DNA of 64,000 nucleotides from Candidatus Edwardsbacteria bacterium (lineage in GTDB: Bacteria > Edwardsbacteria > AC1 > EtOH8), in contig JAGVNJ010000050.1 of NCBI GenBank assembly GCA_020053305.1, forward strand, positions 368-64,367, in the 5' to 3' direction. Within the stretch, counting starts at the first letter, position 1. Each line of letters begins with the position of its first letter. The notes beneath the pieces are model-generated. The model was not told the origin of the DNA. It did not search any database and worked only from the letters and a program-made list of their open reading frames with translations. Shown here piece by piece: positions 5,952 through 57,018 of the stretch. Position numbers and translations under genes: made by a program.

Positions 5952-6013
5952 GCCTTGCCACAGAGTCACGGAGACACAGAGGGAAAACAAAATTTTACGG
6001 AGTTCGATAGAAT

Positions 6014-7198: not shown

Positions 7199-7221
7199 AC
7201 CAAACAGCGAAGAATATTATA

Positions 7222-8601: not shown

Positions 8602-8646
8602 TACATGCATTACGCCAAAATATAGTAGCAGAATAAAGCTTATAGA

Positions 8647-10909: not shown

Positions 10910-10922
10910 AATACAGCCACCT

Positions 10923-12050
10923 ATGGGAAAAAATATTATTGCCTTAAATGGTACAATAATTAGCCCGCAAAGAAGTGATGGCTTTGGCAGGGTCACATAT
11001 GAAATTATCAAAATGGTTAAGTCTAAATATAGTGATGCACTGGTTTATACAAATAAGCAAAATGCACCATTATTTAAATTAAATAATGGTGTTGATATAA
11101 TTAATACAAAAATAAAATATTCGGAAAGCAATTTTACCGGGCATGTCTCTCGTTTTTTATGGCACCAGACAGTGTTGCCGATATCTTTAATAAATAATAA
11201 TATTAATTTATATTTTTCGCCGATCCCGGATGGAATGTTATTCCCCCCTTGTAAACAAATTATTACAATCTATGATTTGTTGCCAATACTATATCCACAA
11301 TCAAGTCCTAGAATTAAATATTATTATAAATATATCCTTCCTAAAATTATAAATTCTTCTTCGGCATTGATCACGGGTTCCGAATCAACAAAAGCGGATG
11401 TGTTAAGCTATTATAAAGATATTCCTTGCCCGATCTATGTTGTTTACCCGGGATATAAAAACGATATGTTTTTTAGGAGATCGCAACAGGAAATTAATAA
11501 TGTTAATGATAAATATAAACTGGATAAATATATAATAACTGTTGGGGAAATTAGACCCTACAAAAACATTAGACGTTTAGTGTCTGCTTTCACAAATATA
11601 AATAACAATCAACATGACCTTGTTATAGTTGGCAAGAAAAGCAGGTTGGAAAAAGATATTGAACAAATGCCAATAGATTTACATGTTAAAAAAAGAATTA
11701 AATATTTAGGCTATGTTTCGGATGTCGAATTGGCTTCTCTTTATTCTGGCGCGCAGATGATGGTTCATCCGTCACTATATGAAGGCTTTGGTTTACCTCC
11801 GTTGGAGGCTATGGCATGTGGATGCCCCGTAATAGTATCTAATTCTTCTTCTATACCAGAGGTGTGTGGAGATGCTGGATGTTATTTTGACCCTTATGAT
11901 GTAGATAACATAATTGATGCCATAAATGAGGTTTTAGGAAATAAATCGCTTCAAAAGGACTTGGCTCTAAAAGGTGTGGAGCGTGCAAAATATTTTAGTT
12001 ATGATAAGATGGTTGCCCAGTTAGTAAATATTTTTAATAGACTATCATAA
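10923..12050 (+). CDS. Glycosyltransferase family 4 (GT-B)
   Basis: C-terminal [21 protein letters not shown] signature of GT4 retaining glycosyltransferases. AT-rich. Confidence 0.85.
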
Positions 12051-38451: not shown

Positions 38452-41400
38452 ATGCTCCATAGAAAATCCAAAATATATTCGTTGTCTTTGGCTCTGATCC
38501 TGACGGCGTCGGCGCTGGACATCGCCGGGAAGGCCCGGGCCCAGGAATTCGGACCATTGGAGGATATCACGGCGGATTACAATGCCGAGAGCTTCCGGAA
38601 AAACGTCAGGACCGCCAGCTACAGCATAGACCACCGGCTGGGGCTGATGATAGAGCAGGAGCTGGTTTCCCAGCTGAGCTTTGGGGTCAGGTATTACAGC
38701 CTGCCCGCCTTTTTGGAAAAACTGCGAATCGAGGGTACGGACAGCGCCTGGGCGAGGAACAATCATGCCTTCTTGTCAAAGCCGCCTCAGGAGAGGACCG
38801 GGGAGGGGCTGATCCCCGACATCCAGATACCCATCCCGGGGCTGGGCAGGGCCTTCGGCTCCGGGGCCCAGATAAAGGTCAGCGGCAACCAGAAGATAAC
38901 CGCCGGATACGACCGGACCACCTACAACCAGATCGGCCGGGACCTGGACGCCAATGCCACAACCGATGACGACCGGATAAACATCAAGCAGGCGCAACGA
39001 GTGAATCTGGAGGGGGTGATCGGCGACCGGGTGCATGTGCTGATAGATTACGACAGCGAGGCCGATCCTGACAAACGTAGCAAGGTCCGCCTGCGATATG
39101 AAGGCCAGGAGGACGAGATCCTGCAGAGCCTGGAGGCTGGGGACACCGAATTTTCCCTAAGCGGCTCCTCTCTGGTGGGCGGGCTGACCACGGTCCACAA
39201 GGGCCTGTTCGGGCTTAAGGGGGTGGCCCGGCTGGGGGGCTTCGAGCTGACGGCCATCGCCAGCAAGGACGAGGGCCAGAGCCAGACCAGCTCGTTCGAC
39301 GGCTCGAATGTAACCTCCTCCGTCACCCACCTGGACAATGAATTCATGCAGTATACGGTATACGAGATCATCCCCGGCGGGCTATTGGGCGATACCATCG
39401 AGGCCATAAAGGTCTATATCAAGAATGATCATGTCACCCCCAATGCCGCCGCCCATTACCTGAAGGACCGGAGCTGGCGGGATTTCAGGGGAATTCCCCG
39501 GGATACGATTTACGGCCCGGTTAGAATGGATGTCAAGACCGAGATCACCGATTTCATCCTGGACGATGCCGTAACCGGCCGGATAATTCTGGCCGCCGGC
39601 ATCTACGATCAATCGGTGCTGGGGGTGGCCTATAAGACCAAAAAAGGCGGCTATTATCCCAGCAAATATAATTTCGACAACTCGGATACCCTGATGCTGG
39701 TGAAGCCGGCCAACTGCCAGCCCGCCGATACCATAAACGGCTATTGCTGGAATTATGAAAAAAGAAATTATTATTCCTTGAACGGCCGGGGCATTGATTT
39801 CTCCACCCTGACCATAAAGCTGCAATACCGCAAAGAGAATGAATGGGTGGATAATGATTCGGCCAGCCAGAAGACCTTCCTGGAACTGCTGGGCCTGGAG
39901 AATGCCGGGGCCCTGTATGATAATTATATCAACCAGGAGGAGGGCTATTATTTCTTCCCCCAGGCTCAGCCGTTCCTGTCCCCGGCTCTGCCTGACAGCT
40001 GTCCTGACATCTACCGGGTGAAGAATCTGACCAATTATTCCGCCAAATACCGCTTTATCATCACCTACAAATCCACCGTGGCGATGTATCCCCTGAACGC
40101 CCCGGGGCGCCTGCTGGAGGGCACGGTCAGCGTCACCCTGGACGGATCACCGGTCTCGTCCGGCGAATATACGGTGGATTACGAGATGGGGACGGTCACC
40201 TTCAACGACCGGATCAAAAACATACTGCAGAGCAATGCCGCCCTTAAGATAGATTATCAATACCTGCCAGCGTTCGCTTTGGGGTCCAAGACCCTGGCCG
40301 GCCTGAGGGGCATCTATAAATTCGGGGAGAGCGGCCAGCTGGGCGGCACCTGGCTGTACCGCAGCGAGCAGACCCCGGACGAAAAGCCCCGGCTGGGCGA
40401 GGAACCCCGCCGGATAATCGTGGCCGGGCTGGACGGGAGCTACCAGGCCGCCCCCGATTTTCTCACCAGCTGGACCAATGCCCTGCCGCTGGTGGAGACC
40501 GAGGCCCCGTCCAACTTCAAGCTGACCGGCGAGGTGGCCGGAAATTTCCCCAACCCCAATACCAAGGGCCAGGTGTACATAGACGATATGGACGGCAGCA
40601 AGGTGTCCGACGAGTTCAACCTGAGCCGCTCGGCCTGGGTGCGCTCCAGCGTCCCTCCGGGCAAGACCGATACCCTGCTGGCCAAAACATTTTATTGGTA
40701 CAACCCCACCACCCAGGTCACCATGAAAGAGATCAATCCCGCCATCACCGATGAGACCCAGAAGAACGAAACCATCAGAACATTATTTTTTAAGTATGAA
40801 TCCGGACATCAGGACTCCTTGAACTCCTGGGCCGGGGTCACCCAGCTGATAAGCAAGACCGGGCTTGATTTAAGCCAGAGCAAACTGCTTAACCTCTGGA
40901 TAAGGGGCACTAAAGGGATCGTCCACATAGATATCGGGCGGAATATTGACGAGGATCAGGTATGGTGGACCAAGAAGGGTCTGCACCCGCAAAATAAAAA
41001 AGTGGACTGCGAGCCCTTGAACCTCAACCGGGAGCCGGTCTATACCGATAACACCGACATCGGCCTGGACCGGGTAAGGGGGAATGACAGCACTTATTCA
41101 TCCGCGTCAAGCGAAGACGGGACCGACGATTATGTTGTTGACGTAAATAAACCCGACTACAGTAAAATAAACGGAACCGAGCGCAACGGCTATTACGACA
41201 CCGAGGACCTTAAGATGAACGGCCTGGATTCGATGGATGTGCCCCAGCTGGGCAATAATTATTACACCTTCCGTTTCGATCTCTCCCAAAGCCCGGCCAA
41301 TCAATACGGCTGGCGCCAGCTGTCGGCTTTGCTGGATACCGCCCAGCCGGTGGGGCCCCAGCTGGGCTGGAGCTCCATTCAGTATGCCCGGATCTGGGTG

Positions 41401-44561: not shown

Positions 44562-44591
44562 TTGACATTTGCAACTTGCATATGCTATAGT
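44562..44591 (+). promoter_or_regulatory. Sigma-70-like promoter (TTGACA-N18-TATAGT) upstream of pilB1
   Basis: Exact -35 hexamer and near-consensus -10. GAGGGA ribosome-binding site before the ATG at 44614. Confidence 0.55.
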
Positions 44592-44613
44592 ATTTCAAAT
44601 TGAGGGAGACGCT

Positions 44614-46308
44614 ATGGGTTTGAAATTAGGCGATATGTTGGTGCAGTCCGGGCTGATAACCAAAGATCAGCTGGACAAGGCCCTGGCCGAGCAGAAAAGC
44701 TCCGGCGCCAAGCTGGGCTCCAGCATTATAAAGCTGGGATTTATGACCGAGGACGCCATCACCCAATTCCTGGGCAAGCAGCTCAACCTTCCCACGGTGA
44801 ATCTTTCCACCGCCGAACTGGATCCCCAGGTTTTAAAACTTATTCCCCCCGAGATAGCCCAGAAATTTCAGGTGATGCCGATCAAAAAAACCGGACGGAT
44901 CCTGTTTCTGGCCATGTCCAACGCCGCCGATGTGTTCATCATGGAGCAAATCTCTTTTCTCACCGGGATGGAGGTCAAGCCGGTGGTATGCGCCGAGACA
45001 TCGCTGGAGAAGGCTTTGGACAAATATTACGGCAGCACCACCCGGGCCGCGGCCCTGAAATCGGTGGAGCAGGAGATCGCCGCCGAGGACATGGAGCTGG
45101 TGGACAAGGATATTGAGGAGGTGGCCAGCCAGGCCGATATCGAATCCACCCCGGTGGTGAAATTAGTAAACAGCATAGTCATCGACGCCATCAAGCGCGG
45201 GGCCTCGGACATCCATATAGAGCCCTACGAAAAAATCCTCCGGGTGCGCTACCGGATAGACGGGGTGCTGCAGGAGACCATGTCGCCTCCCCGCCGGATC
45301 GCGGCGGCCCTGGCCTCGCGCATCAAGGTGCTTTCCAAATTGAACCTCACCGAACGGCGCCTGCCTCAGGACGGAAGGTTCTCCATCAAACTTATCGACC
45401 GGACGGTGGACCTGCGGGTGTCCACCATGCCCATCAAATACGGCGAGAAGATCGTCATCCGGGTGCTGGAGCAGACCAGCCTGGGCGGCGACCTGACCCA
45501 GCTGGGCATCGAGGGCAAGGCCCTGGATGATTTCCTGAAGGCCCTGGCCCGGCCCACCGGCATGATACTGGTCACCGGGCCCACCGGCTCGGGAAAGACC
45601 CGCACCCTTTATTCCGGCATCTCCCGCCTGAACAAGCCCGGGGTCAACATCGTCACCGCCGAGGATCCGGTGGAATACGACATCGTGGGGATCAACCAGG
45701 TCAACGTCCGCCCGGAGATCGGCTATACCTTTGCCAAGGCCCTCAAGGCCTTTTTGCGGCAGGATCCCAACATCGTGCTGGTGGGGGAGATTCGGGACCG
45801 GGAGACCGGCGAGATCGCCATGACCGCGGCCATGACCGGCCACCTGGTGCTGTCCACCCTGCACACCAATGACGCCCCCAGCTCGCTGAACCGGCTGCTG
45901 GATATGGAGATCCCGCCCTTCCTGATAGCCGCCACGGTGAACCTGATCGAAGCCCAGCGCTTAGTCCGGCGCATTTGTTCAAAGTGCAAGGAGCCGGAAA
46001 AAATATCGTCCGAGGAGATGATCAAGATGGGGGTGGATCCAGCCAGTTTCCAAGGGGTGGAGTTTTTCAAGGGCAAGGGATGCCTGGAGTGCAACAATAC
46101 CGGGTACAAGGGCCGGGTGGGCGTGTTTGAGATACTGCCGGTGAGTCCGGAGATAAGAAAACTGATAGTAACCCGGGCCTCCACCGATGAGATCCGGGAG
46201 ATGGCGGTCAAACTGGGGATGAAGACCCTGCGGGAGGATGCCCTGGATAAGGTCAGAAAAGGCATCACCACCATGGAGGCGGCCATCGTGGAGACGGCCT
46301 CGGATTGA
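44614..46308 (+). CDS. pilB: Type IV pilus/T2SS extension ATPase, PilB/GspE family, paralog 1 (N-terminal MshEN-type domain)
   Basis: N-terminal tandem motif KLGDMLVQSGLITKDQLDKALAEQ...KLGSSIIKLGFMTEDAITQFLGKQ. Walker A GPTGSGKTRT. Asp box AEDPVEY. Walker B VLVGEIRD. His box GHLVLSTLHTN. CxxC...CxxC zinc motif. Confidence 0.85.
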   Translation: MGLKLGDMLVQSGLITKDQLDKALAEQKSSGAKLGSSIIKLGFMTEDAITQFLGKQLNLPTVNLSTAELDPQVLKLIPPEIAQKFQVMPIKKTGRILFLAMSNAADVFIMEQISFLTGMEVKPVVCAETSLEKALDKYYGSTTRAAALKSVEQEIAAEDMELVDKDIEEVASQADIESTPVVKLVNSIVIDAIKRGASDIHIEPYEKILRVRYRIDGVLQETMSPPRRIAAALASRIKVLSKLNLTERRLPQDGRFSIKLIDRTVDLRVSTMPIKYGEKIVIRVLEQTSLGGDLTQLGIEGKALDDFLKALARPTGMILVTGPTGSGKTRTLYSGISRLNKPGVNIVTAEDPVEYDIVGINQVNVRPEIGYTFAKALKAFLRQDPNIVLVGEIRDRETGEIAMTAAMTGHLVLSTLHTNDAPSSLNRLLDMEIPPFLIAATVNLIEAQRLVRRICSKCKEPEKISSEEMIKMGVDPASFQGVEFFKGKGCLECNNTGYKGRVGVFEILPVSPEIRKLIVTRASTDEIREMAVKLGMKTLREDALDKVRKGITTMEAAIVETASD

Positions 46309-46343
46309 TAATCACCACATCAAAACTTTAAATAAGACATGAC

Positions 46344-48071
46344 ATGGCTTTAAAAGTCGGCGATATGCTGCTCAAGGCCGGGATGATCAGTCCGGAGCAG
46401 TTGGAACAGGCCCTCAAGGAGCAGCAGAGTTCGGGCCAGAGGCTGGGCTCCCTGCTGGTCAAGATGGGCTTTGTCACCGAGGACGAGGTGGTGGCCTTTC
46501 TCAGCAAGCAGTTCAACGTCCCCTCGGTCAACCTGAACGATTACAAGATCGACGAGCCCATCCTCAAACTGATACCGGCCCATATAGCCCAGAAGTACGG
46601 GCTGATCCCCCTGTCACGCCTGGGCCGGAGCGTGACCGTGGCCATGGTCAACCCCAACGATGTGCTGGCCATGGAGGACATAAAATTCTCCACCGGATTT
46701 GAGGTTCGCCCGGTGATAGCCTCCGAGGCCGCCATCTGGTCGGCCATCGACAAGCAATACGGGTCGGCCGGGATGCTGGAGGATGTGATGAAGGCCATGG
46801 ACCAGGCCGAGGGTGACGTCGAGGCCGGGGACCTGGAGATCCTGGAGGAGCAGCAGGAGGAAGGCGGAGATTCCGCCTCGGAGATGGCCGCGGCCATCGA
46901 GAGCAGCCCGGCGGCCAAATTGGTCAACGGCCTGATCGCCGAGGCGGTCAAGCGCAATGCCACCGACATCCACATCGAGCCCTATGAGAAGGAGATCCGG
47001 GTCCGGATGTCGGTCTACGGCGTGCTGCACGAAGTGATGTCGCCGCCCCTGCGGATGAAGAGCTCCATCGCGGCCCGGATAAAGATCATCGCCAAATTAA
47101 AGATCGAGGAAAAACGCTTTCCCCAGGACGGCCGCCTGCGGATGAACATCCAGGGCAAGCCCATAGACATCCGGGTGTCCATCATCCCCACCGCCTTCGG
47201 GGAGAAGGTGGCCCTGCGCATCCTGGACCGCAGCGCAGTGTCATTCGACCTGCCCACTCTGGGGTTTGAGCCTGAGCCGCTGAAGCACCTGTTGAAGGCG
47301 GTTCAGACGCCCTTCGGAATAGTGCTGGTCACCGGGCCCACCGGCTCCGGCAAGACCACCACCATGTACGCCTGCCTGGAGTCCATCAACCATCCGGACA
47401 CCAATATCATGACCGCCGAGGAGCCGGTGGAGTACAGCCTGATGGGAGTCAATCAGGTGGCGGTGCGCGAGGAAGGCGGCACCACTTTCGGCGCCGCCCT
47501 CAAGGCCTTTTTGCGGCAGGATCCCAACATCATCATGGTGGGAGAGATCCGCGACCGGCAGACCGCCGAGATCGCCATCCGGTCCTCGCTCACCGGCCAT
47601 CTGGTGCTGTCCACCGTCCATACCAACAGCGCCTCGCTGACCATCACCCGGCTGGTGGACATGGGGGTGGAGCCCTTCATGATCGCTTCCTCGTTGCTGC
47701 TGGTGGAGTCCCAGAGGCTGGTCCGCAAGATATGCTCCTACTGCAAGGAGCAGTACAGGCCGGAGGAAAAAATGCTGCGCGAATTCCTGGGGGGCCGGGC
47801 CGACATCACCGGCTTTACCGCCTTCCGGGGCAAGGGCTGCTCGGAATGCCGCAACACCGGATACAAGGGCCGGATCGGCCTGGCCGAGGTGCTGCCCGTC
47901 AGCCCGGGCATCCGGGACCTGATATTGGAGCGAGCCCCCACCTTCAAGATAGAGGCCAAGGCCGTGGAGGAAGGGATGGCCACCCTGCGGATGGACGGGA
48001 TCCACAAGGCCCGCAGCGGGGTGACCACCATCGAAGAGGTCATCAAGGAGACCGTGGCCGCCGCCGACTAA
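46344..48071 (+). CDS. PilB/GspE-family extension ATPase, paralog 2
   Basis: Same domain order and the same Asp/Walker B/His boxes. Walker A GPTGSGKTTT. Acidic linker EGDVEAGDLEILEEQQEEGGDS between the N-domain and the ATPase. Confidence 0.85.
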   Translation: MALKVGDMLLKAGMISPEQLEQALKEQQSSGQRLGSLLVKMGFVTEDEVVAFLSKQFNVPSVNLNDYKIDEPILKLIPAHIAQKYGLIPLSRLGRSVTVAMVNPNDVLAMEDIKFSTGFEVRPVIASEAAIWSAIDKQYGSAGMLEDVMKAMDQAEGDVEAGDLEILEEQQEEGGDSASEMAAAIESSPAAKLVNGLIAEAVKRNATDIHIEPYEKEIRVRMSVYGVLHEVMSPPLRMKSSIAARIKIIAKLKIEEKRFPQDGRLRMNIQGKPIDIRVSIIPTAFGEKVALRILDRSAVSFDLPTLGFEPEPLKHLLKAVQTPFGIVLVTGPTGSGKTTTMYACLESINHPDTNIMTAEEPVEYSLMGVNQVAVREEGGTTFGAALKAFLRQDPNIIMVGEIRDRQTAEIAIRSSLTGHLVLSTVHTNSASLTITRLVDMGVEPFMIASSLLLVESQRLVRKICSYCKEQYRPEEKMLREFLGGRADITGFTAFRGKGCSECRNTGYKGRIGLAEVLPVSPGIRDLILERAPTFKIEAKAVEEGMATLRMDGIHKARSGVTTIEEVIKETVAAAD

Positions 48072-48298
48072 ATATAATACTCGCCTTGGCAATAAACCAA
48101 AGACGAGCAAATCCTAAATCCGAAATCCCAAACAAATGTTAATGACCAAAGCCGTATAATATGGGCATTTTCGGATTTCTGGAATTTTAAAACTTGAGAT
48201 TTGTTTGGTATTTCGGTATTCGAATTTCGGATTTGCCAAAGTGGCAAATACACTCATGAAGAAGGCTCGTTTAAAAATTTAATTAAGCCATAAAACTT

Positions 48299-50065
48299 AT
48301 GCCGCAAAATATTGCCGACATGCTTTTGAAGATGGGACTCCTGACCAAGTCCCAGTACGATCAGGCCTCTCTGGAGCAGAAGAGCAGCAACGAGCCGCTG
48401 GCCGCCACCTTGGTCCGGATGGGGATGGTCACCGAGAACGTGGCCATGCAGTTCATGTCCCGGCAGTTCAATGTCCCGGCCATGGACCTGAGCAACTTCC
48501 AGGTGGAGCCGGCGGTGATAAAGCTGATCCGGCCGGACATCGCCAACAAATTCATGGTGATCCCGTTAAAGCGCCTGGGCCGGGCCCTGACCCTGGCCAT
48601 GATCGATCCCTCGGATTTCTTCGCCCTGGAGGATATCAAATTTCTCACCGGCCTGGACGTCAAGCCGGTGGTGGCCGGCTATTCGGCCGTCAAGAAACTG
48701 CTGGAGCAGCACTATCCGCTGGGCAAGGATGTTCAGGTGATCGCCTCCGGCGGCCAGCTGAGCCAGCTTAAGGACGAGGCCATCGAGAGCCTGCCCGATG
48801 ATGACTCGGCCCTGGAGGGGCTGGGGGGCGACATCGAGATGGAGATGGTGGACGATGTCGAGGAGGACATGGACCTGGCCGACGCCCAGCAGGCCGGCTC
48901 CTCCACCCCGGTGGTCAAAATGGTCAACTACATCATGACCGAGGCGGTGCGCCGCGGAGCCTCGGACATCCATGTGGAGCCCTATGAGAAGATCTTCCGG
49001 ATCCGATTGAGGCAGGACGGCGTGCTGCAGACCCTGATGGAGCCGCCCATGCGGATGAAGGCCCCGCTGGTCTCCCGCATAAAGATCATGTCCAAACTGG
49101 ACGTCACCGAGCGCCGCAAGCCGCAGGACGGCCGGATCGCCATCAAGGTGCTCAACAAGAAGATCGACCTCCGGGTGTCCACCCTGCCGGTGCTGTTCGG
49201 GGAGAAGGTGGTGATGCGTATTTTGGACGCCGGGTCGCTGACCCTGGATCTGGCCAATTTCGGCTTCACCGAACTGGCCCTGAAGAATTTCATGAAGGCC
49301 ATCCACGCCCCCTACGGCATAGTCCTGATCACCGGCCCCACCGGGTCGGGAAAGACCACCACCCTGTATTCCGCCCTCTCCCAGCTGAACACGCCGGACC
49401 GGCATATCCTGACCGTGGAGGATCCCATCGAATACAATCTGAAGGGGGTCAACCAGGTCCAGGCCGAGTTGGGGATAGGTTTCACCTTTGACGTGGCCCT
49501 CAGGGCCATGCTGCGGCAGGCTCCCAACATCATCATGCTGGGCGAGATCCGGGACGGCCCCACCGCCGCCATCGCGGTCAAGGCCGCCCTGACCGGGCAT
49601 CTGGTGTTGTCCACCCTGCATACCAACGACGCTCCGTCGTCGGTCAGCCGTCTGATCGACATGGGGATCGAGCCGTTCCTGGTGGCCTCCTCGACCGTGC
49701 TGATCCAGGCCCAGCGCCTGGTCCGCCGGATATGCAAGGCCTGCAAGGAGCCGTTCCATGTCAATCCCCAGTCCCTGATCGACATGGGCTTCAAAGCCGA
49801 GGAGGTGGCCGGGGTCACCTATTACAAGGGCAAGGGCTGCCCCATCTGCAGCAATACCGGATACAAGGGCCGGGTGGGTCTCTACGAGGTGATGCCCATC
49901 ACTCCCGAGATCCGGGACCTGATACTGAACCGGGAGGCGGTGACCTCCATCAGGGCCAAGGCGGTGGAACAGGGGATGCTGACCCTGCGGATGGACGCCT
50001 GGGGCAAGGTCAAGCAGGGCATGACCACGGTGGAGGAGATGTTCCGCGAAACCGCCGAGGGATAG
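48299..50065 (+). CDS. PilB/GspE-family extension ATPase, paralog 3
   Basis: Same architecture. Walker A GPTGSGKTTT. Acidic linker DDDSALEGLGGDIEMEMVDDVEEDMD. Tetracysteine motif CKACKEP...CPICSNTG. Confidence 0.85.
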   Translation: MPQNIADMLLKMGLLTKSQYDQASLEQKSSNEPLAATLVRMGMVTENVAMQFMSRQFNVPAMDLSNFQVEPAVIKLIRPDIANKFMVIPLKRLGRALTLAMIDPSDFFALEDIKFLTGLDVKPVVAGYSAVKKLLEQHYPLGKDVQVIASGGQLSQLKDEAIESLPDDDSALEGLGGDIEMEMVDDVEEDMDLADAQQAGSSTPVVKMVNYIMTEAVRRGASDIHVEPYEKIFRIRLRQDGVLQTLMEPPMRMKAPLVSRIKIMSKLDVTERRKPQDGRIAIKVLNKKIDLRVSTLPVLFGEKVVMRILDAGSLTLDLANFGFTELALKNFMKAIHAPYGIVLITGPTGSGKTTTLYSALSQLNTPDRHILTVEDPIEYNLKGVNQVQAELGIGFTFDVALRAMLRQAPNIIMLGEIRDGPTAAIAVKAALTGHLVLSTLHTNDAPSSVSRLIDMGIEPFLVASSTVLIQAQRLVRRICKACKEPFHVNPQSLIDMGFKAEEVAGVTYYKGKGCPICSNTGYKGRVGLYEVMPITPEIRDLILNREAVTSIRAKAVEQGMLTLRMDAWGKVKQGMTTVEEMFRETAEG

Positions 50066-50165
50066 AACGAATATCAAAAATAAAATATAAAAAACTCAAA
50101 GGGTTAATCCTGGGTGTTTTTCTGTCCCGGTGGTAAAATGAATATAAAATAAGGATGGGCAAAGC

Positions 50166-51236
50166 ATGTTGACTCTTACCCAACTCTTGGAGGAGATGAT
50201 CCAGAAGAAGGGGACCGACCTGCACCTGACGGTGGGGATCCCGCCGGTGATCCGGGTGGACGGCGAGCTGATGCAGACCTCCCACGAGACGCTGACCCCC
50301 CAGATGACCGAACAGCTGGCCTACAGCATACTGAAGGACACCCAGAAGAAGCGCTTTGAGACCGAACGGGAGCTGGACCTGTCCATCGGCATTCAGGGGC
50401 TCTCCCGCTTCCGGGGCAACATCTTTCTGCAGCGGGGCTGCGTGGCCATGGCCATGCGGGTGATCCCCTGGGAGATCCGCTCCTTCCAGGCCCTGGGCCT
50501 ACCGCCCATCGCCGCTGCCCTGGCCGACAAACCCAAGGGACTGGTGCTGGTCACCGGGCCCACCGGCTCGGGCAAATCCACCACCCTGGCCACCATGATC
50601 GACAAGATCAACAGCGAGCGGCGGGGTCACATCATCACCGTCGAGGACCCCATCGAGTACATCCATCATCACAAGAAATGCATCATCAACCAGCGGGAGC
50701 TGGAGTCGGACACCAAGAGCTTCAAGAACGCCCTGAAATACGCCCTGCGGCAGGACCCCGACGTGGTGCTGGTGGGCGAGATGCGGGACCTGGAGACCGT
50801 GGAGTCGGCCCTGCACATCTCCGAGACCGGCCACCTGACCCTGGCCACCCTGCACACCAACTCGGCGGCCGAATCCATCCACCGCATCATCGACGTCTTT
50901 CCGCCCTATCAGCAGCCCCAGGTGCGGGCCCAGCTGGCCTTCGTGCTGGAGGGGGTGATGACCCAGCAGCTGATACCCATGACCCGGGGCGGCCGGGCCC
51001 TGTGCCTGGAGATCATGGTCTGCACCCCGGCCATCAAGGCCCTGATCCGGGACGACAAGGTCCACCAGATATATTCCTCGATGCAGGCCGGGCAGAAGTA
51101 CGGCATGCAGACCATGAACCAGTCGCTGGCCAATCTTTTCTTCGAGAAGAAGGTCTCGCTGGACACCGCCTTCGACCACACCTCCAACGTGGAGGAGCTG
51201 GACCAGATGATCAAGAAACGCCAGGCCGTGGTGTGA
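50166..51236 (+). CDS. pilT: Twitching-motility retraction ATPase
   Basis: PilT length (356 aa). Walker A GPTGSGKSTT. AIRNLIRE-like motif (AIKALIRDDK). No MshEN N-domain. Confidence 0.9.
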   Translation: MLTLTQLLEEMIQKKGTDLHLTVGIPPVIRVDGELMQTSHETLTPQMTEQLAYSILKDTQKKRFETERELDLSIGIQGLSRFRGNIFLQRGCVAMAMRVIPWEIRSFQALGLPPIAAALADKPKGLVLVTGPTGSGKSTTLATMIDKINSERRGHIITVEDPIEYIHHHKKCIINQRELESDTKSFKNALKYALRQDPDVVLVGEMRDLETVESALHISETGHLTLATLHTNSAAESIHRIIDVFPPYQQPQVRAQLAFVLEGVMTQQLIPMTRGGRALCLEIMVCTPAIKALIRDDKVHQIYSSMQAGQKYGMQTMNQSLANLFFEKKVSLDTAFDHTSNVEELDQMIKKRQAVV

Positions 51237-51534
51237 TAATATTGGGAACTTTGCACACAGATGAACACAGATTAGTACAGATTTTCTCGGATTTAATTTT
51301 ATGATTTTGGGTTAACAAGTAACGTCCGTGCAAATCCGGTCCAATCAGTGAAATCCGTGTGCCATAAGCCCCCCGTCCGATTCCCGATCTCAATTCCACT
51401 CAGGGCAGGCTTATCGTCTTCCCCGCCACCGTCCGCCTCCGGCGGAGCGGTGATTGAATTCCAATGACTACAATTAATCGCTCGGATTAATAATTCCTTA
51501 GAAAAGAATAAATATTTTACAAGGAGCAATAAAG

Positions 51535-52746
51535 ATGCCACTATATCTCTGGAAAGGGCGCGATTCCAAAGCCGGTTTGGTCTCCGGAGAGCTGACCGCC
51601 GAAAGCGAAGGCGCGGTCATCGAGGCGTTGCGCAAGAAAAATATAATAGTGTCCTCGGTGCGGGTCAAGCCCAAGGAGATCACCCTCAGCTTTATGCAAC
51701 CCAAGGTGAGCAACAAGGACCTGTCGATCTTCACCCGGCAGTTCGCCACCATGATCAACGCCGGCCTGCCGCTGGTTTCCTGCCTGGAGATCCAGGCCCA
51801 GCAGCAGGAGAACCCCACCTTCAAGAAGGTGCTGGAGACCATCAAGTCCGATGTGGAGGGCGGCTCCACTTTGGCCGAGGCCCTGAAGCGGCAGAAACAG
51901 GTGTTCAGCGAACTGTATATCAACATGGCGGCGGCCGGCGAGGCCGGCGGTATCTTAGACAACATTTTGATGCGCCTGGCGGTATATCTGGAAAAGGCCG
52001 AGGCCCTGGTATCCAAGGTCAAAAGGGCCATGATCATGCCGGTGATTTTGACCACCGTAGCGGTGGGAGCGGCGGCGGTGTTGCTGATATTCGTGATCCC
52101 CATCTTCGAGAAGATGTTCGCCGGTATGGGGGCCAAGCTGCCGGGCCCCACCCTGTTCGTGGTGGGGCTCTCCAAGTTCCTGCAGAAATTCATCATCCCC
52201 ATCATCATCGTGGCCGCGGCCGCCATATTTGCCATTCAGCGGTGGTACAAGACCGACAAGGGAGAGCTGTACCTGGACTCCCTGATGCTTAAAATACCCA
52301 TCCTGGGCAATCTCCAGCAGAAATCGGCCGTGGCCCGTTTCGCCCGGACCCTGGGCACTCTTCTGGCCAGCGGCGTGGCCATCCTGGACGCCCTGGAGAT
52401 CACCGCCAAGACCGCCGGCAACCGGGTGGTGCAGGACGCCATCATGTCGGCCCGCAAGTCCATCGGAGGCGGCGAGACCATCTCGGCCCCCTTAAAGACC
52501 ATGAAGATATTTCCGCCCATGGTGGTGCAGATGATCTCGGTGGGCGAGGCCACCGGCGGTCTGGACGAGATGCTCAATAAGATCGCCGACTTCTACGACG
52601 AGGAGGTGGACGGAGCGGTGGAGGGACTGACCGCGGCCATGGAGCCGATCATCATGGTGGTGCTGGGGCTGGGCATCGGCGGCATGGTGGTAGCCATGTA
52701 TCTGCCGATATTCACCATGACCTCGGCCCTGATGGGCGGTCACTAA
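51535..52746 (+). CDS. pilC: Type IV pilus inner-membrane platform protein (PilC/GspF family)
   Basis: Duplicated GspF domain. Three TM segments. Typical N-terminus MPLYLWKGRDSKAG. 403 aa. Confidence 0.9.
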   Translation: MPLYLWKGRDSKAGLVSGELTAESEGAVIEALRKKNIIVSSVRVKPKEITLSFMQPKVSNKDLSIFTRQFATMINAGLPLVSCLEIQAQQQENPTFKKVLETIKSDVEGGSTLAEALKRQKQVFSELYINMAAAGEAGGILDNILMRLAVYLEKAEALVSKVKRAMIMPVILTTVAVGAAAVLLIFVIPIFEKMFAGMGAKLPGPTLFVVGLSKFLQKFIIPIIIVAAAAIFAIQRWYKTDKGELYLDSLMLKIPILGNLQQKSAVARFARTLGTLLASGVAILDALEITAKTAGNRVVQDAIMSARKSIGGGETISAPLKTMKIFPPMVVQMISVGEATGGLDEMLNKIADFYDEEVDGAVEGLTAAMEPIIMVVLGLGIGGMVVAMYLPIFTMTSALMGGH

Positions 52747-52766: not shown

Positions 52767-54941
52767 ATGAGATCAACTTTCCTGAAGGATAACCCGGTGA
52801 TGTTTTGGGGCCGGGTGGTAATCGTGGCATTGATGACGGGAAGCGCTGCGGTGTTAAAAACACTGGGGGCGCTTCCCCTGTCTTTTCCGGGCATCATCCT
52901 CCTGTCTATCATCTTCCTGCTGCTGACGGCCTTTGCTAAGTATCTTAATCATCGGCGGCCGGGCTGGCGGTGGGATTATGCCCAAATGGTGCTGGACATC
53001 GGCTGGATCGCCGCCTTCATCCATATGACCGGCGGGGCGGAGAACCCCTTTACCCTGCTGTTCTTCATAGCCATTATTGCCGCCGCCAATGTCCGCTTTG
53101 CTAAGGGAGCAATTTTCACCGCCACCTTATCCAGCCTGACCCTGGCCGCTTTGATATATTTGGATTACCGCAGTTTAAGGACCGGACTGTTGCTGGGCCG
53201 GGACCAGGATTTCGTGACTGCTTTCACTACCGAGTTTGTTTTCCGGGGATACCTCTATGCCATCTGCTTCTATCTGGTGGCGGCCTTCTCCGGCTACCTG
53301 GCCGAAAGGCTCAGGCTGAAGGGGAGGCAGCTGGAGGACACCGCCCGGGCCCTGGAGGAGTTCAAGCTGTCCACCGGCGATATCCTGGAGAAGATGGGCA
53401 GCGGCCTGCTGACCATCAATGAAAAAGGGCAGATCGTATACTGCAACCTTTCCGGCCTGCAGATACTGGGCCTGGAAAAAAGCGAGATCATCGGCCGCAA
53501 TGTCTCCCAGGTAGCCGTCGAGGGCCGGGAATCCCTGGGGAGCATTCTGGCCCCGGATAATGCCCCAAGGGAAGGCCGCTCCCAGCGGATGGAGATAAAA
53601 ATATCGCGGGGCCGGGAGGAGGGCATTCCGGTGGGGGTCAGCACCACCTCGGTCTATGGCAGCCAGGGGAAACTGGAGGGCATCATCGCCATCTTCCAGG
53701 ACCTGAGCGCGGTCAAAACGCTGGAGAACCGGATGATCGAGATGGAACAGCTGGAGACCTCCAAGGAGCTGACCAAATCCCTGCTGAAGCTTCTGCATCC
53801 CTACCTTTCCGAGATAAATGCCACCATCTCCGAACTGATGAGGGAGAATGAGGTGGACCCGGTCATCATCGCCAAGATCTCCCGGGTTAAGGAGAAGACC
53901 GAGTATATCCGCAAGACCATCGATGACTTTGCCAGGTTCGCCCATATCGAAATCCCGGGAGCCGATATGGTCCAGCAGGCCGGCCGGGAATATGACAGCC
54001 GGATAATTGGCCGGTCGCCGAATTTCGTCGAGATCATGAACATGGTCCAGCAGGTGGCCCCCACCGACAGCACGGTGCTGGTCTGCGGGGAGTCCGGCAC
54101 CGGCAAGGAACTGCTGGCCCGGGAGCTGCACCGCCTGAGCGGTCGGGGCAAAGGACCATTCGTCAGCATCAACTGCGCCGCCCTGCCCGAGACCCTGCTG
54201 GAATCGGAGCTGTTCGGCCATGTCAAGGGATCGTTCACCGGGGCGATGCGCGACAAGGACGGCCTGTTCCGGGTGGCCTCCGGCGGCACCTTTTTCTTAG
54301 ACGAGGTGTCCGAGACCTCTCCGGCCATTCAGGTTAAGCTGCTGCGGGTGCTGCAGGAACGGGAGATCGTGCCGGTGGGAGGCACCCGTCCCATCAAGGT
54401 GGATGTCAGGGTGATCTCGGCCACCAACAGCGATCTGGCAAAGGCGGTGGAGATGAATAAATTCAGGATGGATCTGTTCTACCGCCTTAACGTCATCCAG
54501 ATCACCATCCCTCCGCTGAGGGACCGCAAAGACGACGTGCTGCTGCTGGCCGATGAGATCATCGCCAATTATTGCCGGAAGCAGAATCTCCCGGTTAAGC
54601 TGATGTCTTCCGGGGCCAGGGATTTTTTGATGCAATACAATTGGCCCGGCAACGTCAGGGAATTGGAGAATGTCTTGGAGCGGGCCATCATCCTGGAGAC
54701 CGGACCGGTGATAGAAAAAAACAGCCTGCCGGACGAGGTATTGAAGTTCGGGTCCGACATTAAAAAGGCGCCGTTACCGGAAACGGCCAACGGGGGGAAT
54801 TTAAAGGACAAGGAAAAGCAGACCATTCTTAAGGTATTGACCGAATGCCATAACAATAAGGCCTTGGCGGCCAAAAAGCTGGGTATTCACTACGCCACTT
54901 TGTACCGGAAATTGAAAAGCTATAATATTACGGATGAATAA
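52767..54941 (+). CDS. Membrane-anchored sigma-54-dependent transcriptional activator (polytopic TM sensor - PAS - AAA+ - Fis HTH; no receiver domain)
   Basis: Four to six N-terminal TM helices containing a PilS/AlgZ-like HMTGGAENPF segment. PAS-like region. Sigma-54 interaction domain (VLVCGESGTGKELLAREL, GSFTGA variant of GAFTGA, RVISATN). C-terminal HTH (ALAAKKLGIHYATLYRKL). Confidence 0.8.
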   Translation: MRSTFLKDNPVMFWGRVVIVALMTGSAAVLKTLGALPLSFPGIILLSIIFLLLTAFAKYLNHRRPGWRWDYAQMVLDIGWIAAFIHMTGGAENPFTLLFFIAIIAAANVRFAKGAIFTATLSSLTLAALIYLDYRSLRTGLLLGRDQDFVTAFTTEFVFRGYLYAICFYLVAAFSGYLAERLRLKGRQLEDTARALEEFKLSTGDILEKMGSGLLTINEKGQIVYCNLSGLQILGLEKSEIIGRNVSQVAVEGRESLGSILAPDNAPREGRSQRMEIKISRGREEGIPVGVSTTSVYGSQGKLEGIIAIFQDLSAVKTLENRMIEMEQLETSKELTKSLLKLLHPYLSEINATISELMRENEVDPVIIAKISRVKEKTEYIRKTIDDFARFAHIEIPGADMVQQAGREYDSRIIGRSPNFVEIMNMVQQVAPTDSTVLVCGESGTGKELLARELHRLSGRGKGPFVSINCAALPETLLESELFGHVKGSFTGAMRDKDGLFRVASGGTFFLDEVSETSPAIQVKLLRVLQEREIVPVGGTRPIKVDVRVISATNSDLAKAVEMNKFRMDLFYRLNVIQITIPPLRDRKDDVLLLADEIIANYCRKQNLPVKLMSSGARDFLMQYNWPGNVRELENVLERAIILETGPVIEKNSLPDEVLKFGSDIKKAPLPETANGGNLKDKEKQTILKVLTECHNNKALAAKKLGIHYATLYRKLKSYNITDE

Positions 54942-54959
54942 GAAACAGGGTAGTCGGTA

Positions 54960-55150
54960 TGGCAATAATAGTCATCCTGAGATTCTTCGGCTTGCCGGGC
55001 AGGATGCAGGACTCAGAATGACGAAATGGTTTGCTGTCACGTCATCCTGAAAGCGACAACAGTTTTCACAATGTCATTCCCTCGAAAGAGGGTATCTATG
55101 TTTTTGCTGGATTCCCGCCTATGCGGGAATGACACAGAATTGAAGGATCT
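54960..55150. repeat. Hairpin-rich intergenic repeat cluster (GTCATCCTGA x2; TGTCATTCCC...GGGAATGACA 10-bp inverted repeat)
   Basis: Direct and inverted copies of a GTCATYCC / GGAATGAC core. Small perfect hairpins (CCCTC-gaaa-GAGGG, TCCCGC-ctat-GCGGGA). Related copy at 60927-61035. Confidence 0.6.
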
Positions 55151-55201
55151 GCGCCTATAGGAGGTGTTCAGGAGGCTATCTTGGGCTATCCTCCTGACTT
55201 T

Positions 55202-55217
55202 AGGCACGATAATTGCT
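55202..55217 (+). promoter_or_regulatory. Sigma-54 (-24/-12) promoter upstream of the HAMP-pilin gene
   Basis: AGGCACGATAATTGCT matches TGGCACG-N4-TTGCW with correct GG/GC spacing. About 36 nt upstream of the ATG at 55253. Confidence 0.65.
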
Positions 55218-55252: not shown

Positions 55253-56338
55253 ATGGCTCAAAATCGAAGACGAAAAATACTGGCCCACAAGGATATGCAG
55301 ATCAGGATCGTCATTCAGATCTTGGCAATGGTGGCCGGCGGAATGCTGCTGGTGGGCGGGGCGATATATCTGATCATCTGGCAGGGCATCACCAGCCCGG
55401 CCTTTGCTTCGGGTCAAACATCAATAATCAGCATCTTTGACCAGGTGCATAAATTGCTTTTTATAGTTATTCCGGTTCTTATCTTGATAATGGGCTGGAT
55501 CGCAATAATTATCTCACATCGTATAGCCGGACCTTTGGTAAACCTGAACAAGGGCATGAGAGACCTGGAGAGCGGCCAGTGGCCGGAGCGGCCCATGAAA
55601 TTCCGCAAAGGGGATGAGGGCCATCACCTGGCAGAGCAGTTCAACAGCATGGTGGAGAAAGTAAAATTGCAGATGGAACACGAAAGAAACAGGATGGACT
55701 CCATGCTGACTGAAGTGGAATCCGTTTCAGCCAAGTTAAAGCAGGAGAAAAAGACCGAACAGGAAATCATAAAGGAATTGGATTCATTGCAGGAAAAAAT
55801 CAAAAAATCCGCTCAGCAGGGCTTCACCCTGATAGAATTGATGATCGTGGTGGTGATAATAGGCATACTGGCCGCCATAGCCGTGCCCAATTACATGAGT
55901 ATGCGCAGCCGGGCTATGGAAGCCTCTACCAAATCAAATATGCATACTCTGCAATTAGTGATTGAAGATTTTGCGGTGAGGGTTGACGGCTTTTACCCCG
56001 ATAACTTGGATACAAAATTATCGGATATTAACGCATCATTATCTGCCGTTTCGATTGCCGAAGGCGTGCGTATCCCGCCATTCCCGGCCGCTGCCTTGAT
56101 ATGTCCGCACTTGGGTTATGTCAATCCGTTTAATCCTGCGGCCAACGCTTTGGACGATCTCCCGGGCGGCCCGCCAGCACCGGCGGCGGGCCCCAGCGGA
56201 GATGTTTTTTATACCAGTTATGATGTTGACGGCAACCTGAACGGAGGCACCAATCCAGCCGCTAGGGGGTATAGAATATGTGCATATGGTAAAACTGACC
56301 CCGTGATCCTGATTTTAACTGGAGGCACGGGAAATTAG
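55253..56338 (+). CDS. 2TM-HAMP-coiled-coil protein fused in-frame to a type IV prepilin (or two unresolved genes with the pilin starting at an internal TTG)
   Basis: Residues 1-90: two TM helices with a short loop. Residues 90-140: HAMP-like (HRIAGPLVNLNKGMRDLESGQW...DEGHHLAEQFNSMVEKV). Then about 50 aa of coiled coil. Then the canonical prepilin motif KKSAQQG|FTLIELMIVVVIIGILAAIAVPNY and a pilin globular domain paralogous to 56518..57018. No stop codon separates the two parts. Confidence 0.55.
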   Translation: MAQNRRRKILAHKDMQIRIVIQILAMVAGGMLLVGGAIYLIIWQGITSPAFASGQTSIISIFDQVHKLLFIVIPVLILIMGWIAIIISHRIAGPLVNLNKGMRDLESGQWPERPMKFRKGDEGHHLAEQFNSMVEKVKLQMEHERNRMDSMLTEVESVSAKLKQEKKTEQEIIKELDSLQEKIKKSAQQGFTLIELMIVVVIIGILAAIAVPNYMSMRSRAMEASTKSNMHTLQLVIEDFAVRVDGFYPDNLDTKLSDINASLSAVSIAEGVRIPPFPAAALICPHLGYVNPFNPAANALDDLPGGPPAPAAGPSGDVFYTSYDVDGNLNGGTNPAARGYRICAYGKTDPVILILTGGTGN

Positions 56339-56437
56339 TCGTCTATTGCAATAATATCGCATAATGCAAAGTAAATAAATTTGAACTATCATTGCGTAAC
56401 CGTTTATATACAATAAACTTGTCAACGCATTTATTTT

Positions 56438-56453
56438 TGGCATGATTTATGCT
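56438..56453 (+). promoter_or_regulatory. Sigma-54 (-24/-12) promoter upstream of pilA
   Basis: TGGCATGATTTATGCT fits TGGCAC-N5-TTGCW in spacing. About 65 nt upstream of the pilA ATG. Confidence 0.65.
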
Positions 56454-56517: not shown

Positions 56518-57018
56518 ATGAACAACAAAGGCTTTACCCTGATCGAGTTGATGATCGTGGTGGTCATCATCGGTATCCTGGCGGCCATCGCCATTCCCAA
56601 CTTTATGTCCATGCAGGACCGGGCCAAGGAAGGTTCCGTCAAGGCTAATATGCATACCCTGCAGTTGGCGTCCGAGGATTTCTCTACCCAAGCTGATGGG
56701 ATTTATGCAGGAAACCTCGCTAGCACAATTGCTGATGCTAACGCCCTGTCTGCCAGCGTGTCTACTATTCCATTGTTATTGCCGGGCAATTTTAAGAACC
56801 CGTTTTTAGGTACAACGGGCGTAGGGGGTGGTTTGGCACTTAACGACGGCGGCGCGGAGCCGGCAGTATTTGCGGTTGCTGATAGAGGCATAGTATATTA
56901 TAACGGCTTGGATGTGGCTGGCGCATATGTTGGGGCAGTGGGTCCGGCAGTATCCTACGCAATCTATGGCGCAGGCAAAACTGACATTATTATCCTTAGG
57001 CTTACTTCGGGCCAGTAG
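56518..57018 (+). CDS. pilA: Type IV major pilin (PilA-like)
   Basis: MNNKG|FTLIELMIVVVIIGILAAIAIPNF prepilin leader and N-terminal helix. 166 aa. Confidence 0.85.
   Translation: MNNKGFTLIELMIVVVIIGILAAIAIPNFMSMQDRAKEGSVKANMHTLQLASEDFSTQADGIYAGNLASTIADANALSASVSTIPLLLPGNFKNPFLGTTGVGGGLALNDGGAEPAVFAVADRGIVYYNGLDVAGAYVGAVGPAVSYAIYGAGKTDIIILRLTSGQ

Follow-up and report, generated by a model that had tools for sequence, protein, structure and literature searches.

The gene described here lies in a stretch of 64 kb from Candidatus Edwardsbacteria (hereafter, the window) and encodes a single protein that is, by its sequence, a natural merger of PilS and PilR in which both phosphorylation modules have been lost. 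We consider it quite probable that this single-polypeptide descendant of a pilS-pilR pair is a phosphorylation-free, membrane-tethered activator of pilin transcription, perhaps gated by pilin. Because the protein has neither a HATPase_c domain, nor a phospho-accepting histidine, nor the receiver domain that would carry the aspartate, signalling by phosphotransfer is impossible. The gene and its segments are as follows:

52767..54941, + strand: PilS-PilR fusion gene, 724 aa (open reading frame listing, Pfam, relatives)
52806..53321, + strand: PilS-type six-helix membrane domain, aa 14-185 (Pfam, hydropathy, colinearity with PilS, pN far below pS)
53364..53714, + strand: cytoplasmic PAS domain, aa 200-316 (Pfam PAS_9/PAS/PAS_4, fragment model, PDB fold matches)
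53715..53945, + strand: degenerate DHp (HisKA-derived) helical hairpin, aa 317-393 (BLASTP, hhalign, model, folds, dN/dS)
53946..54002, + strand: flexible junction of 19 aa, aa 394-412 (pLDDT, dN/dS, junction alignment)
54003..54746, + strand: sigma-54 interaction AAA+ domain and lid, aa 413-660 (Pfam, alignment with PilR, PDB matches)
54804..54923, + strand: Fis-type HTH_8 DNA-binding domain, aa 680-719 (Pfam; LGIHYATL invariant in the family)

A first-pass annotation had read a polytopic membrane domain, a PAS domain, a sigma-54 AAA+ domain and a Fis-type HTH in one open reading frame, and Pfam recovers all of them in that order. The PilS-type membrane domain (6TM_PilS, PF25323) is matched above the gathering score at aa 16-184 (E 3e-10; 40.6 bits, cutoff 27), and the match covers positions 19-184 of the 189 in the profile; it is followed by matches to PAS (aa 206-316), Sigma54_activat (aa 413-579, E 5e-69), AAA_lid_14 (aa 585-660) and HTH_8 (aa 680-719, E 2.6e-11). 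The same annotation had seen neither a kinase nor a receiver, and Response_reg, HisKA and HATPase_c indeed give no Pfam match in the fusion protein even at E<=1; OmpR-type Trans_reg_C has no Pfam match either. The Walker A (GESGTGKE) and Walker B (FFLDEV) motifs and the sigma-54 contact loop (GSFTGA) are invariant across the fusion family, and the AAA+/HTH core matches ZraR, NtrC4 and NtrC1 in the PDB at E values of 1e-69 to 4e-85. Translation probably starts at the upstream ATG, since divergent relatives keep the first 11 residues as protein sequence.

The N-terminal part of the protein has about six hydrophobic segments by hydropathy. Loops rich in Lys and Arg, at aa 59-70, aa 109-114 and past aa 178, suggest an N-in/C-in topology, as read from hydropathy and charged loops. 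The TGGAENPF loop lies between membrane helices 3 and 4. The HMTGGAENPF segment, earlier likened to the PilS membrane region, aligns with the TGGxxSP motif of true PilS kinases.

A direct joint of PAS to AAA+ had been proposed, but the DHp hairpin and the 19-residue linker lie in between. Likewise, the claim that HisKA is skipped holds for the phospho-His and for the Pfam match, both of which are gone, but not for the hairpin, which is kept: aa 317-393 align without gaps to the DHp/HisKA region of PilS (hhalign 97.7%, E 1.5e-12), and BLASTP finds the two colinear. The predicted structure places the helices of the hairpin at aa 314-359 and 365-394. Lys341 occupies the phospho-His column, which holds K, Q or A across the fusion family and E in its distant member P0086. 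The histidine required in the H-box (H-E-x-R-N-P-L) is thus missing, nearby His344 is unconserved, and so are, family-wide, the H-box and the adjacent phosphatase-motif residues. The fragment model of the PAS domain reaches a pLDDT of 85-93, and the best PDB fold matches of the PAS and DHp fragment are PAS/LOV-histidine kinases, over 205-233 columns. A profile of the linker run against PDB sequences gave only insignificant coiled-coil matches and one histidine kinase at E 0.066, which says little by itself. The full-length AlphaFold model (pLDDT 58) is too poor for domain packing or for a fold search of the membrane and AAA+ parts; in both the full-length and the fragment models the junction, where PilS-derived and PilR-derived sequence meet, falls below a pLDDT of 50. 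A cryptic receiver between PAS and AAA+, which the first-pass annotation had named as a finding that would refute its reading, was ruled out, the segment consisting of two long helices homologous to DHp and not of an alpha/beta receiver.

The selective constraint on the protein extends over its length. Judged by pN, which lies far below pS in each of the 6TM, PAS, DHp-like, AAA+ and HTH segments, every module is under purifying selection. The dN/dS of the DHp-like hairpin is 0.11-0.26; the junction, at 0.21-0.46, is the least constrained segment. Many polar residues of the membrane loops, the PAS core and the DHp-like hairpin are invariant in the fusion family.

Both halves of the protein can be traced to their sources. 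The N-terminal 393 residues are homologous to, and colinear with, PilS kinases, and the PilS alignment found by BLASTP spans residues 72-393 of the fusion and ends at aa 393. A canonical PilR aligns to aa 411-719 with 56% identity, beginning at the AAA+ domain; over the C-terminal 310 residues, identity to PilR-type activators with a receiver is 56-62%. The nearest non-fusion relatives of this half have Response_reg without exception, and JGI names some of them PilR. Moreover, two loci of the closest canonical relatives (L014 and L015) have the order HHH-pilB-pilT-pilC-pilS-pilR-pilA-ABC_tran-ABC2_membrane, and the neighbourhood of the fusion loci is identical except that one gene replaces pilS and pilR between pilC and pilA. 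As a single gene fills the pilS/pilR slot, gene order settles the descent of the fusion from adjacent pilS and pilR genes, and the first-pass view of a short-circuited PilSR is upheld by homology and by position alike. The segments lost, as read from the alignments, are the HATPase_c domain of PilS and the receiver and coiled-coil linker of PilR, and their loss is in frame.

The fusion architecture is rare among 1.84 billion representative proteins. About 25 proteins have it, mostly from Candidatus Edwardsbacteria-like MAGs, and the family has members only in uncultured lineages of which little is known (Candidatus Edwardsbacteria and relatives). A search of contigs with a single-protein query returned one true relative (L004) and unrelated PAS proteins. 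The sensor half of P0086 has 39% raw identity to a true kinase and by that measure is nearer to it than to the fusion family. In neighbour-joining trees of both halves, however, P0086 groups with the fusion family (bootstrap 70 and 65, against 100 and 96 for the core family), and it matches the family in the length of the junction and in the 'IE' motif that follows the DHp hairpin. A single origin is mildly favoured by this placement and these common features over a second, independent fusion.

The fusion gene begins 20 nt past the pilC stop codon and so is probably co-transcribed with pilB, pilT and pilC. The surrounding features are:

44569..52746, + strand: upstream pilus genes, whole block (Pfam; order matched in relatives)
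44569-46308, + strand: pilB, first of three paralogues
46344-48071, + strand: pilB, second of three paralogues
48299-50065, + strand: pilB, third of three paralogues
50166-51236, + strand: pilT
51535-52746, + strand: pilC
55202..55217, + strand: -24/-12 (sigma-54 type) promoter AGGCACGATAATTGCT, 36 nt 5' of the HAMP-pilin open reading frame
55253..56338, + strand: HAMP-pilin open reading frame, 361 aa (Pfam N_methyl at aa 186-210, weak HAMP)
56357..56369, no strand: palindrome TCGCATAATGCAA, consensus TTGCA-N3-TGCAA, 81 bp upstream of the pilA -24 element
56438..56453, + strand: -24/-12 promoter TGGCATGATTTATGCT, 65 nt before pilA
56518..57018, + strand: major-pilin-type gene pilA, 166 aa, leader MNNKGFTLIELM (open reading frame listing, Pfam)

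The two pilin genes had been described as flanking the regulator; both in fact lie downstream of it. The -24/-12 elements reported before each of them are present, and their positions are conserved in relatives. Counterparts of the element before the HAMP-pilin gene occur at the equal position in L001 (TGGCCTAATTATTGCA) and L004 (GGGCACGATAACTGCA), and the pilA promoter is conserved in L001, L004, L009, L002, L012 and L018 as well as in the canonical L014 and L015. Matches to the -24/-12 consensus show no excess over chance in the window (22 seen, 31 expected), so that the reality of these promoters rests on their conserved position in relatives. A scan for sigma-70 promoters and terminators around the fusion gene gave nothing exceeding chance. 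The product of the HAMP-pilin gene has two TM helices, a HAMP-like segment and a coiled coil, followed by the prepilin motif GFTLIELM (Gly at aa 190); its open reading frame is kept in frame in L001, L004 and L018, and there are N-terminal matches in L016 and L017. The leader of this pilin, with its two TM helices and HAMP, is about 190 residues long.

The palindrome occurs in all seven fusion loci that include pilA, where the chance expectation is about 0.003-0.005 per locus, and it lies about 80-110 bp upstream of the pilA promoter across loci. Promoter and palindrome thus precede pilA in every pilA-containing fusion locus, the distant L012 included. A palindrome-like site is also found upstream of pilA in the canonical loci, with one mismatch in L014 and two in L015, and exact matches lie upstream of pilB in both. 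We regard the palindrome as a candidate enhancer (UAS) for the HTH domain; its half-site TTGCA resembles a -12 element, and its recurrence could therefore partly reflect promoter-like sequence. pilA is the probable main target of the fusion regulator, and the HAMP-pilin gene a probable further one. The window holds no other two-component or sigma-54 activator gene among open reading frames of at least 150 aa, and no rpoN.

How might such a protein work? In our preferred scheme, the fusion protein would reside in the inner membrane as a dimer held together by its DHp hairpins, and its HTH domains would bind TTGCA-N3-TGCAA, which precedes the -24/-12 promoter of pilA by some 80-110 bp. An AAA+ ring would then be built from these dimers and would spend ATP on opening the sigma-54 promoter complexes of pilA and the HAMP-pilin gene. 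No phosphotransfer would be involved: the membrane and PAS sensor would control AAA+ assembly by way of the DHp helical bundle, whose dimer would thereby stand in for the receiver/coiled-coil dimer that keeps activators of the NtrC1/DctD type inactive. Judging by the analogy of PilS, the signal read by the membrane domain is probably the inner-membrane pool of pilin, which would place pilin synthesis under feedback, this step and its sign being the least supported of the scheme. A literature search for a PilS-PilR fusion or a transmembrane sigma-54 activator found no description of either. We put forward, tentatively and at somewhat less than even likelihood, that this is the first recognised polytopic-membrane sigma-54 enhancer-binding protein, that its 6TM-PAS-DHp part drives assembly of the AAA+ ring without a phosphoryl group, and that it may sense pilin together with the HAMP-pilin as a regulated membrane ligand of the PilS-like domain.

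The protein could instead be a membrane precursor that a protease cuts, for example within aa 394-412 or between TM6 and PAS, freeing a soluble activator (AAA+-HTH or PAS-DHp-AAA+-HTH) that acts like PspF or a receiver-less NtrC1; the membrane-integrated regulator CadC is reportedly activated by proteolysis, to judge from the title of PMC11484849. The disorder and weak constraint of the junction would suit such a cut, and receiver-less AAA+ cores of the NtrC1/DctD type are expected to be assembly-competent (PMC2941729). Regulated release is nevertheless unlikely, because the strong conservation of the PAS domain and the DHp-like hairpin suggests continuous allosteric coupling over a simple tether, and neither a protease gene nor a cleavage motif was found adjoining the fusion gene. 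It is also distinctly improbable that loss of the receiver has left the AAA+ domain always active, with the PilS half only localising the protein (to the membrane or the pole) or dimerising it and sensing nothing, although the title of a paper by Ethier and Boyd in 2000, cited in PMC6058289, ties the PilS membrane domain to polar targeting. Removal of a negative receiver and its coiled-coil linker should unlock assembly (PMC2941729), and the junction alignment shows a helical linker of that kind in canonical PilR relatives. A passive anchor is, however, hard to reconcile with membrane loops, a PAS core and a DHp-like hairpin that are constrained as strongly as other functional domains. DHp domains are the usual docking surface of receiver domains, yet a phosphorelay or partner switch, in which the His-less DHp docks a stand-alone receiver or heterodimerises with a true PilS and the partner controls the AAA+ domain, is very improbable indeed, since no receiver or kinase gene was found in the 52 kb upstream and the 9 kb downstream of the fusion gene, or in flanks of 8-10 kb around seven related loci, and since the H-box region is unconserved.

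If the membrane-tethered, phosphorylation-free activator works as we infer, a histidine-kinase sensor is able to control an AAA+ activator directly, by its conformational output. The modules are all familiar and it is their wiring that is unusual: the gene clearly exemplifies, in nature, the collapse of a two-component system into a one-component system, the phosphotransfer modules deleted in frame and the dimeric signalling helix of the kinase kept. It also poses a mechanistic problem, in that six-helix membrane domains would tether a ring-forming sigma-54 activator that has both to assemble and to find its enhancer. In classical PilS, membrane sensing is hard to separate from the balance of kinase and phosphatase; the fusion would provide a phosphorylation-free readout of PilS-type membrane sensing, the proposed signal being inner-membrane pilin.

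The closest known system is PilS-PilR of Pseudomonas aeruginosa, in which PilS, a six-TM kinase, contacts PilA directly for autoregulation and PilR activates pilA with sigma-54 (PMC6058289). The fusion shares with that pair, and with the canonical L014 and L015, the 6TM_PilS and PAS domains, the DHp fold, the sigma-54 AAA+ domain and HTH_8, as well as the position between pilC and pilA and the sigma-54 promoter before pilA; similar palindromes occur in canonical relatives. It differs in being one polypeptide without HATPase_c, the phospho-His, the receiver Asp domain or the coiled-coil linker between receiver and AAA+, and in that the activator itself is predicted to be integral to the membrane. 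Activators of the NtrC1/DctD type, which are kept as inactive dimers by the receiver and the coiled-coil linker, have a closely related AAA+/HTH core, and the proposed analogy is a helical dimerising element N-terminal to AAA+ (PMC2941729); in the fusion, however, that element comes from a kinase, as a DHp hairpin with a membrane and PAS sensor feeding into it, and is not a phosphorylatable receiver. The receiver-less one-component activators NorR, DmpR/XylR, NifA and PspF also combine sensor and AAA+ in one protein, or have no sensor, and use no phosphorylation (PMC2941729; for the prevalence of one-component enhancer-binding proteins, PMC6615313). These proteins are soluble, with GAF, V4R, PAS and similar sensory domains, whereas the fusion has a polytopic membrane sensor; in a survey of Clostridiales, most sensory domains of enhancer-binding proteins had no transmembrane regions (PMC6615313). 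Finally, the membrane-integrated one-component activators ToxR, CadC and TcpP (PMC7888679, PMC6320335) resemble the fusion in that sensing and DNA binding reside in one membrane-anchored protein that meets its promoter at the membrane. ToxR, CadC and TcpP have a single TM helix and an N-terminal OmpR-type winged helix and act on sigma-70 promoters by recruitment, whereas the fusion, with six TM helices and its Fis-type HTH at the C-terminus, has to build an AAA+ ring that hydrolyses ATP for sigma-54.

The fusion regulator is a protein of 724 residues (52767..54941, +, from the ORF listing) that likely starts at the first ATG, because the first 11 residues are kept as protein in divergent relatives; no Shine-Dalgarno sequence was found upstream of this codon. 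Its Pfam matches are:

aa 16-184, 6TM_PilS (PF25323)
aa 206-316, PAS
aa 413-579, Sigma54_activat
aa 585-660, AAA_lid_14
aa 680-719, HTH_8

Response_reg, HisKA and HATPase_c gave no Pfam match in the protein at a threshold of E<=1, and NCBIfam returned many named activators, each matched under its curated cut-off and in its AAA+/HTH part alone. PilS is a six-TM kinase (PMC6058289). Hydropathy reveals about six hydrophobic segments in the fusion regulator, and both termini would be cytoplasmic (N-in/C-in), judging from the Lys/Arg-rich loops at aa 59-70, at aa 109-114 and past aa 178. The polytopic PilS-like N-domain recognized in the first-pass annotation is supported by these segments, by the 6TM_PilS match and by BLASTP, in which the aa 1-412 query runs colinear with true PilS kinases, starting in the membrane domain and reaching aa 392.

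This colinearity spans the HisKA domain of the kinases and stops at the 'FLxFAR' motif that closes helix 2 of the DHp, the HisKA-derived helical hairpin. Moreover, hhalign finds a gapless match (97.7%, E 1.5e-12) between the family profile of aa 308-412 and one built from four PilS DHp regions, with Lys341 at the position of the phospho-accepting His; family members have K, Q or A there, and the nearby His344 is not conserved. AlphaFold models (fragment pLDDT 77) predict a helix at 314-359, a short loop, a helix at 365-394 and then disorder to aa 412, and in the PDB the aa 190-420 model finds its closest folds among PAS/LOV-histidine kinases (8a3u, 4gcz, 4i5s and a WalK model; E 1e-10 to 4e-7), the 205-233 aligned columns taking in both PAS and DHp. 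By these alignments and models, the PAS-to-AAA+ segment is a DHp remnant. The HisKA colinearity, the profile alignment, the two-helix models and the kinase fold matches therefore rule out a hidden receiver, and the earlier view of a regulator with neither receiver nor kinase stands; that of a PAS joined directly to the AAA+ domain has to be abandoned, since the hairpin and the disordered stretch intervene.

The fusion architecture is common to about 25 proteins from independent metagenomes and MAGs, several of them labelled Candidatus Edwardsbacteria, with 46-87% identity in the sensor half. Walker A, Walker B, the GSFTGA loop and the HTH are invariant, as are many residues of the membrane domain, the PAS and the DHp-like hairpin. 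In all modules pN lies far below pS (Nei-Gojobori, fusion regulator against four relatives); the DHp remnant has a dN/dS of 0.11-0.26 where dS is unsaturated, comparable with that of the 6TM and PAS modules, and constraint is loosest in the 19-residue junction (0.21-0.46). On these sequence comparisons the fusion regulators are a real gene family under selection, and the family is also rare. Among the best 150 matches of a sensor-half profile to 1.84 billion representative proteins, two of the seven Pfam-scanned proteins (P0029 and the distant P0086) are full-length fusions and the remaining single-stretch matches are kinase-sized, mostly 450-625 aa (5/5 scanned are PilS kinases); longer multi-stretch matches cover the PAS region only, and two more (P0019 and P0022, one labelled Edwardsbacteria) are fragments known from the first homologue search. 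Database labels of the fusion proteins read only 'sigma 54-interacting transcriptional regulator' or 'response regulator HydG'. The distant member is encoded as follows:

L012, 110-2263, P0086, distant fusion-family member

In P0086 the H-box is better kept (VRxPL) and Glu replaces the phospho-His; the protein also has the family's junction length and 'IE' motif. It clusters with the family in neighbour-joining trees of the sensor and activator halves with modest support (70% and 65%, against 100% and 96% for the core family), and a single ancestral fusion that includes P0086 is the mildly favoured reading.

Outside the family, the closest relatives of the N-terminal half are PilS kinases (6TM_PilS-PAS-HisKA-HATPase_c), and those of the C-terminal half are receiver-bearing NtrC-family regulators of about 460 aa (57-62% identical) from related candidate phyla, some named PilR by JGI. 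Two of the latter lie in canonical loci, L014 and L015, ordered HHH-pilB-pilT-pilC-pilS-pilR-pilA-ABC_tran-ABC2_membrane; the window has pilB x3-pilT-pilC-[fusion regulator]-HAMP-pilin-pilA-(133-aa ORF)-ABC_tran-ABC2_membrane, the last label being taken from orthologues in relatives. Residues 72-393 of the fusion regulator correspond to L014 PilS 74-384, and residues 411-719 to L014 PilR 142-448 (56% identity). The simplest reading is that the regulator arose by an in-frame deletion within pilS-pilR, which would have removed about 170 PilS residues (HATPase_c) and about 125-140 PilR residues (receiver and helical linker). The three tandem PilB-type ATPase paralogues (44569-50065, +) each have an MshEN N-terminal domain; a lone pilB is present in L014 and L015 as well as in L010, a divergent fusion locus.

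In the window and the relatives' loci, pilC always precedes the regulator gene, and -24/-12 elements lie before pilA:

window, 56438
L001, TGGCATGTATTTTGCT
L004, TGGCATGCATATTGCT
L009, TGGCACGCACTTTGCT
L002, TGGCACGATAATTGTA
L018, TGGCATTAAATTTGCG
L012 (distant), TGGTATGAAAATTGCA
L014 and L015 (canonical), present

Because -24/-12 matches within the window alone are no more than expected by chance, it is the conserved position that counts as evidence, and it bears out the first-pass assignment of such promoters to the pilin genes; HAMP-pilin is preceded by a separate one in L001 and L004 as in the window. Each of the seven pilA-containing fusion loci has the palindrome TTGCA-N3-TGCAA (<=1 mismatch) at 80-110 bp before the -24 element (chance, about 0.003-0.005 per locus); in L012 a perfect TTGCATTTTGCAA palindrome, the -24/-12 element and a pilin gene lie directly 3' of the P0086 gene. 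Between pilR and pilA, L014 has the palindrome with one mismatch and L015 a two-mismatch version only, and both have exact palindromes 190-245 bp upstream of pilB. Since canonical PilSR loci have similar sites, we take the palindrome as an inherited PilR-type candidate enhancer. The exact palindromes of L014 are separated from pilB by a -24/-12 element. Upstream of the first pilB of the window is a sigma-70-like promoter (TTGACA, 18 nt, TATAGT; 44563-44598) with the palindrome-like TTGCAACTTGCAT (44569-44581) inside its spacer, a 13-mer also present in L001, 45 bp before pilB1; the regulator could repress or autoregulate the pilB-pilC-regulator operon in the window. From the regulator stop to the first -24/-12 promoter runs a repeat-rich spacer of about 250 bp (54942-55200), with two copies of GTCATCCTGA and a 25-nt inverted repeat at 55072-55134; the L004 promoter is within 10 bp of the stop codon, and the spacer therefore looks like a small inserted element.

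The HAMP-pilin was found solely beside the fusion regulator:

55253-56338, +, HAMP-pilin ORF of 361 aa, prepilin motif GFTLIELM at residue 190 only
L001 16353-17435; L004 10238-11317; L018 4001-5089, HAMP-pilin in relatives

Two TM helices, a HAMP-like segment and a coiled coil precede the motif, making this a pilin with a membrane-anchored 'leader' of about 190 residues. Its reading frame is conserved and an internal start is not; given the topology, prepilin peptidase could cut the protein on the cytoplasmic side, and the PilS-like domain may have it as a ligand or partner. L002 and L009 have a normal short-leader pilin (182 aa) at this position, with homology seen for L002. The contigs of L010 and L011 end about 100-200 bp 3' of the regulator gene, perhaps because the assemblies broke in a pilin region that is variable or repeated. 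Elsewhere in the window, a 1879-aa ORF (38452-44091, +) has no Pfam match at E<=0.001, and the ORF at the equivalent position in L002 matches SprA_N, a type IX secretion component. A low-GC island at about 6000-12000 (GC 0.31-0.39 vs about 0.55 elsewhere), within a 35-kb polysaccharide biosynthesis cluster, encodes Wzz-, Wzy- and flippase-type proteins and glycosyltransferases and looks like a horizontally exchanged O-antigen/EPS cassette.

We infer a mechanism in which membrane and PAS sensing would alter the DHp bundle, the bundle would permit or prevent assembly of the AAA+ ring at the enhancer, and the assembled ring would activate pilA and the HAMP-pilin gene. No rpoN gene lies within the 64-kb window. 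The regulator gene is 0.3-1.5 kb from its target promoters in the window and up to about 5 kb in L001; by analogy with CadC/ToxR-type regulators, we speculate that such linkage might help a membrane-tethered activator find its site. Release of the activator by proteolysis seems improbable, a tethered activator that is constitutively active even less probable, and a hidden partner the least probable. The modules and the regulatory logic of the preferred, DHp-gated reading are already known; what sets the fusion regulator apart from every described system found in the literature searched is its architecture, which joins a sigma-54 AAA+ activator to a polytopic membrane sensor and a DHp that lacks the phospho-His. 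In activators of the NtrC1/DctD type, the receiver dimer and a coiled-coil linker keep the AAA+ domain as an inactive dimer until phosphorylation (PMC2941729), whereas in the fusion regulator a kinase DHp hairpin and about 19 flexible residues stand in place of this receiver/coiled-coil module.
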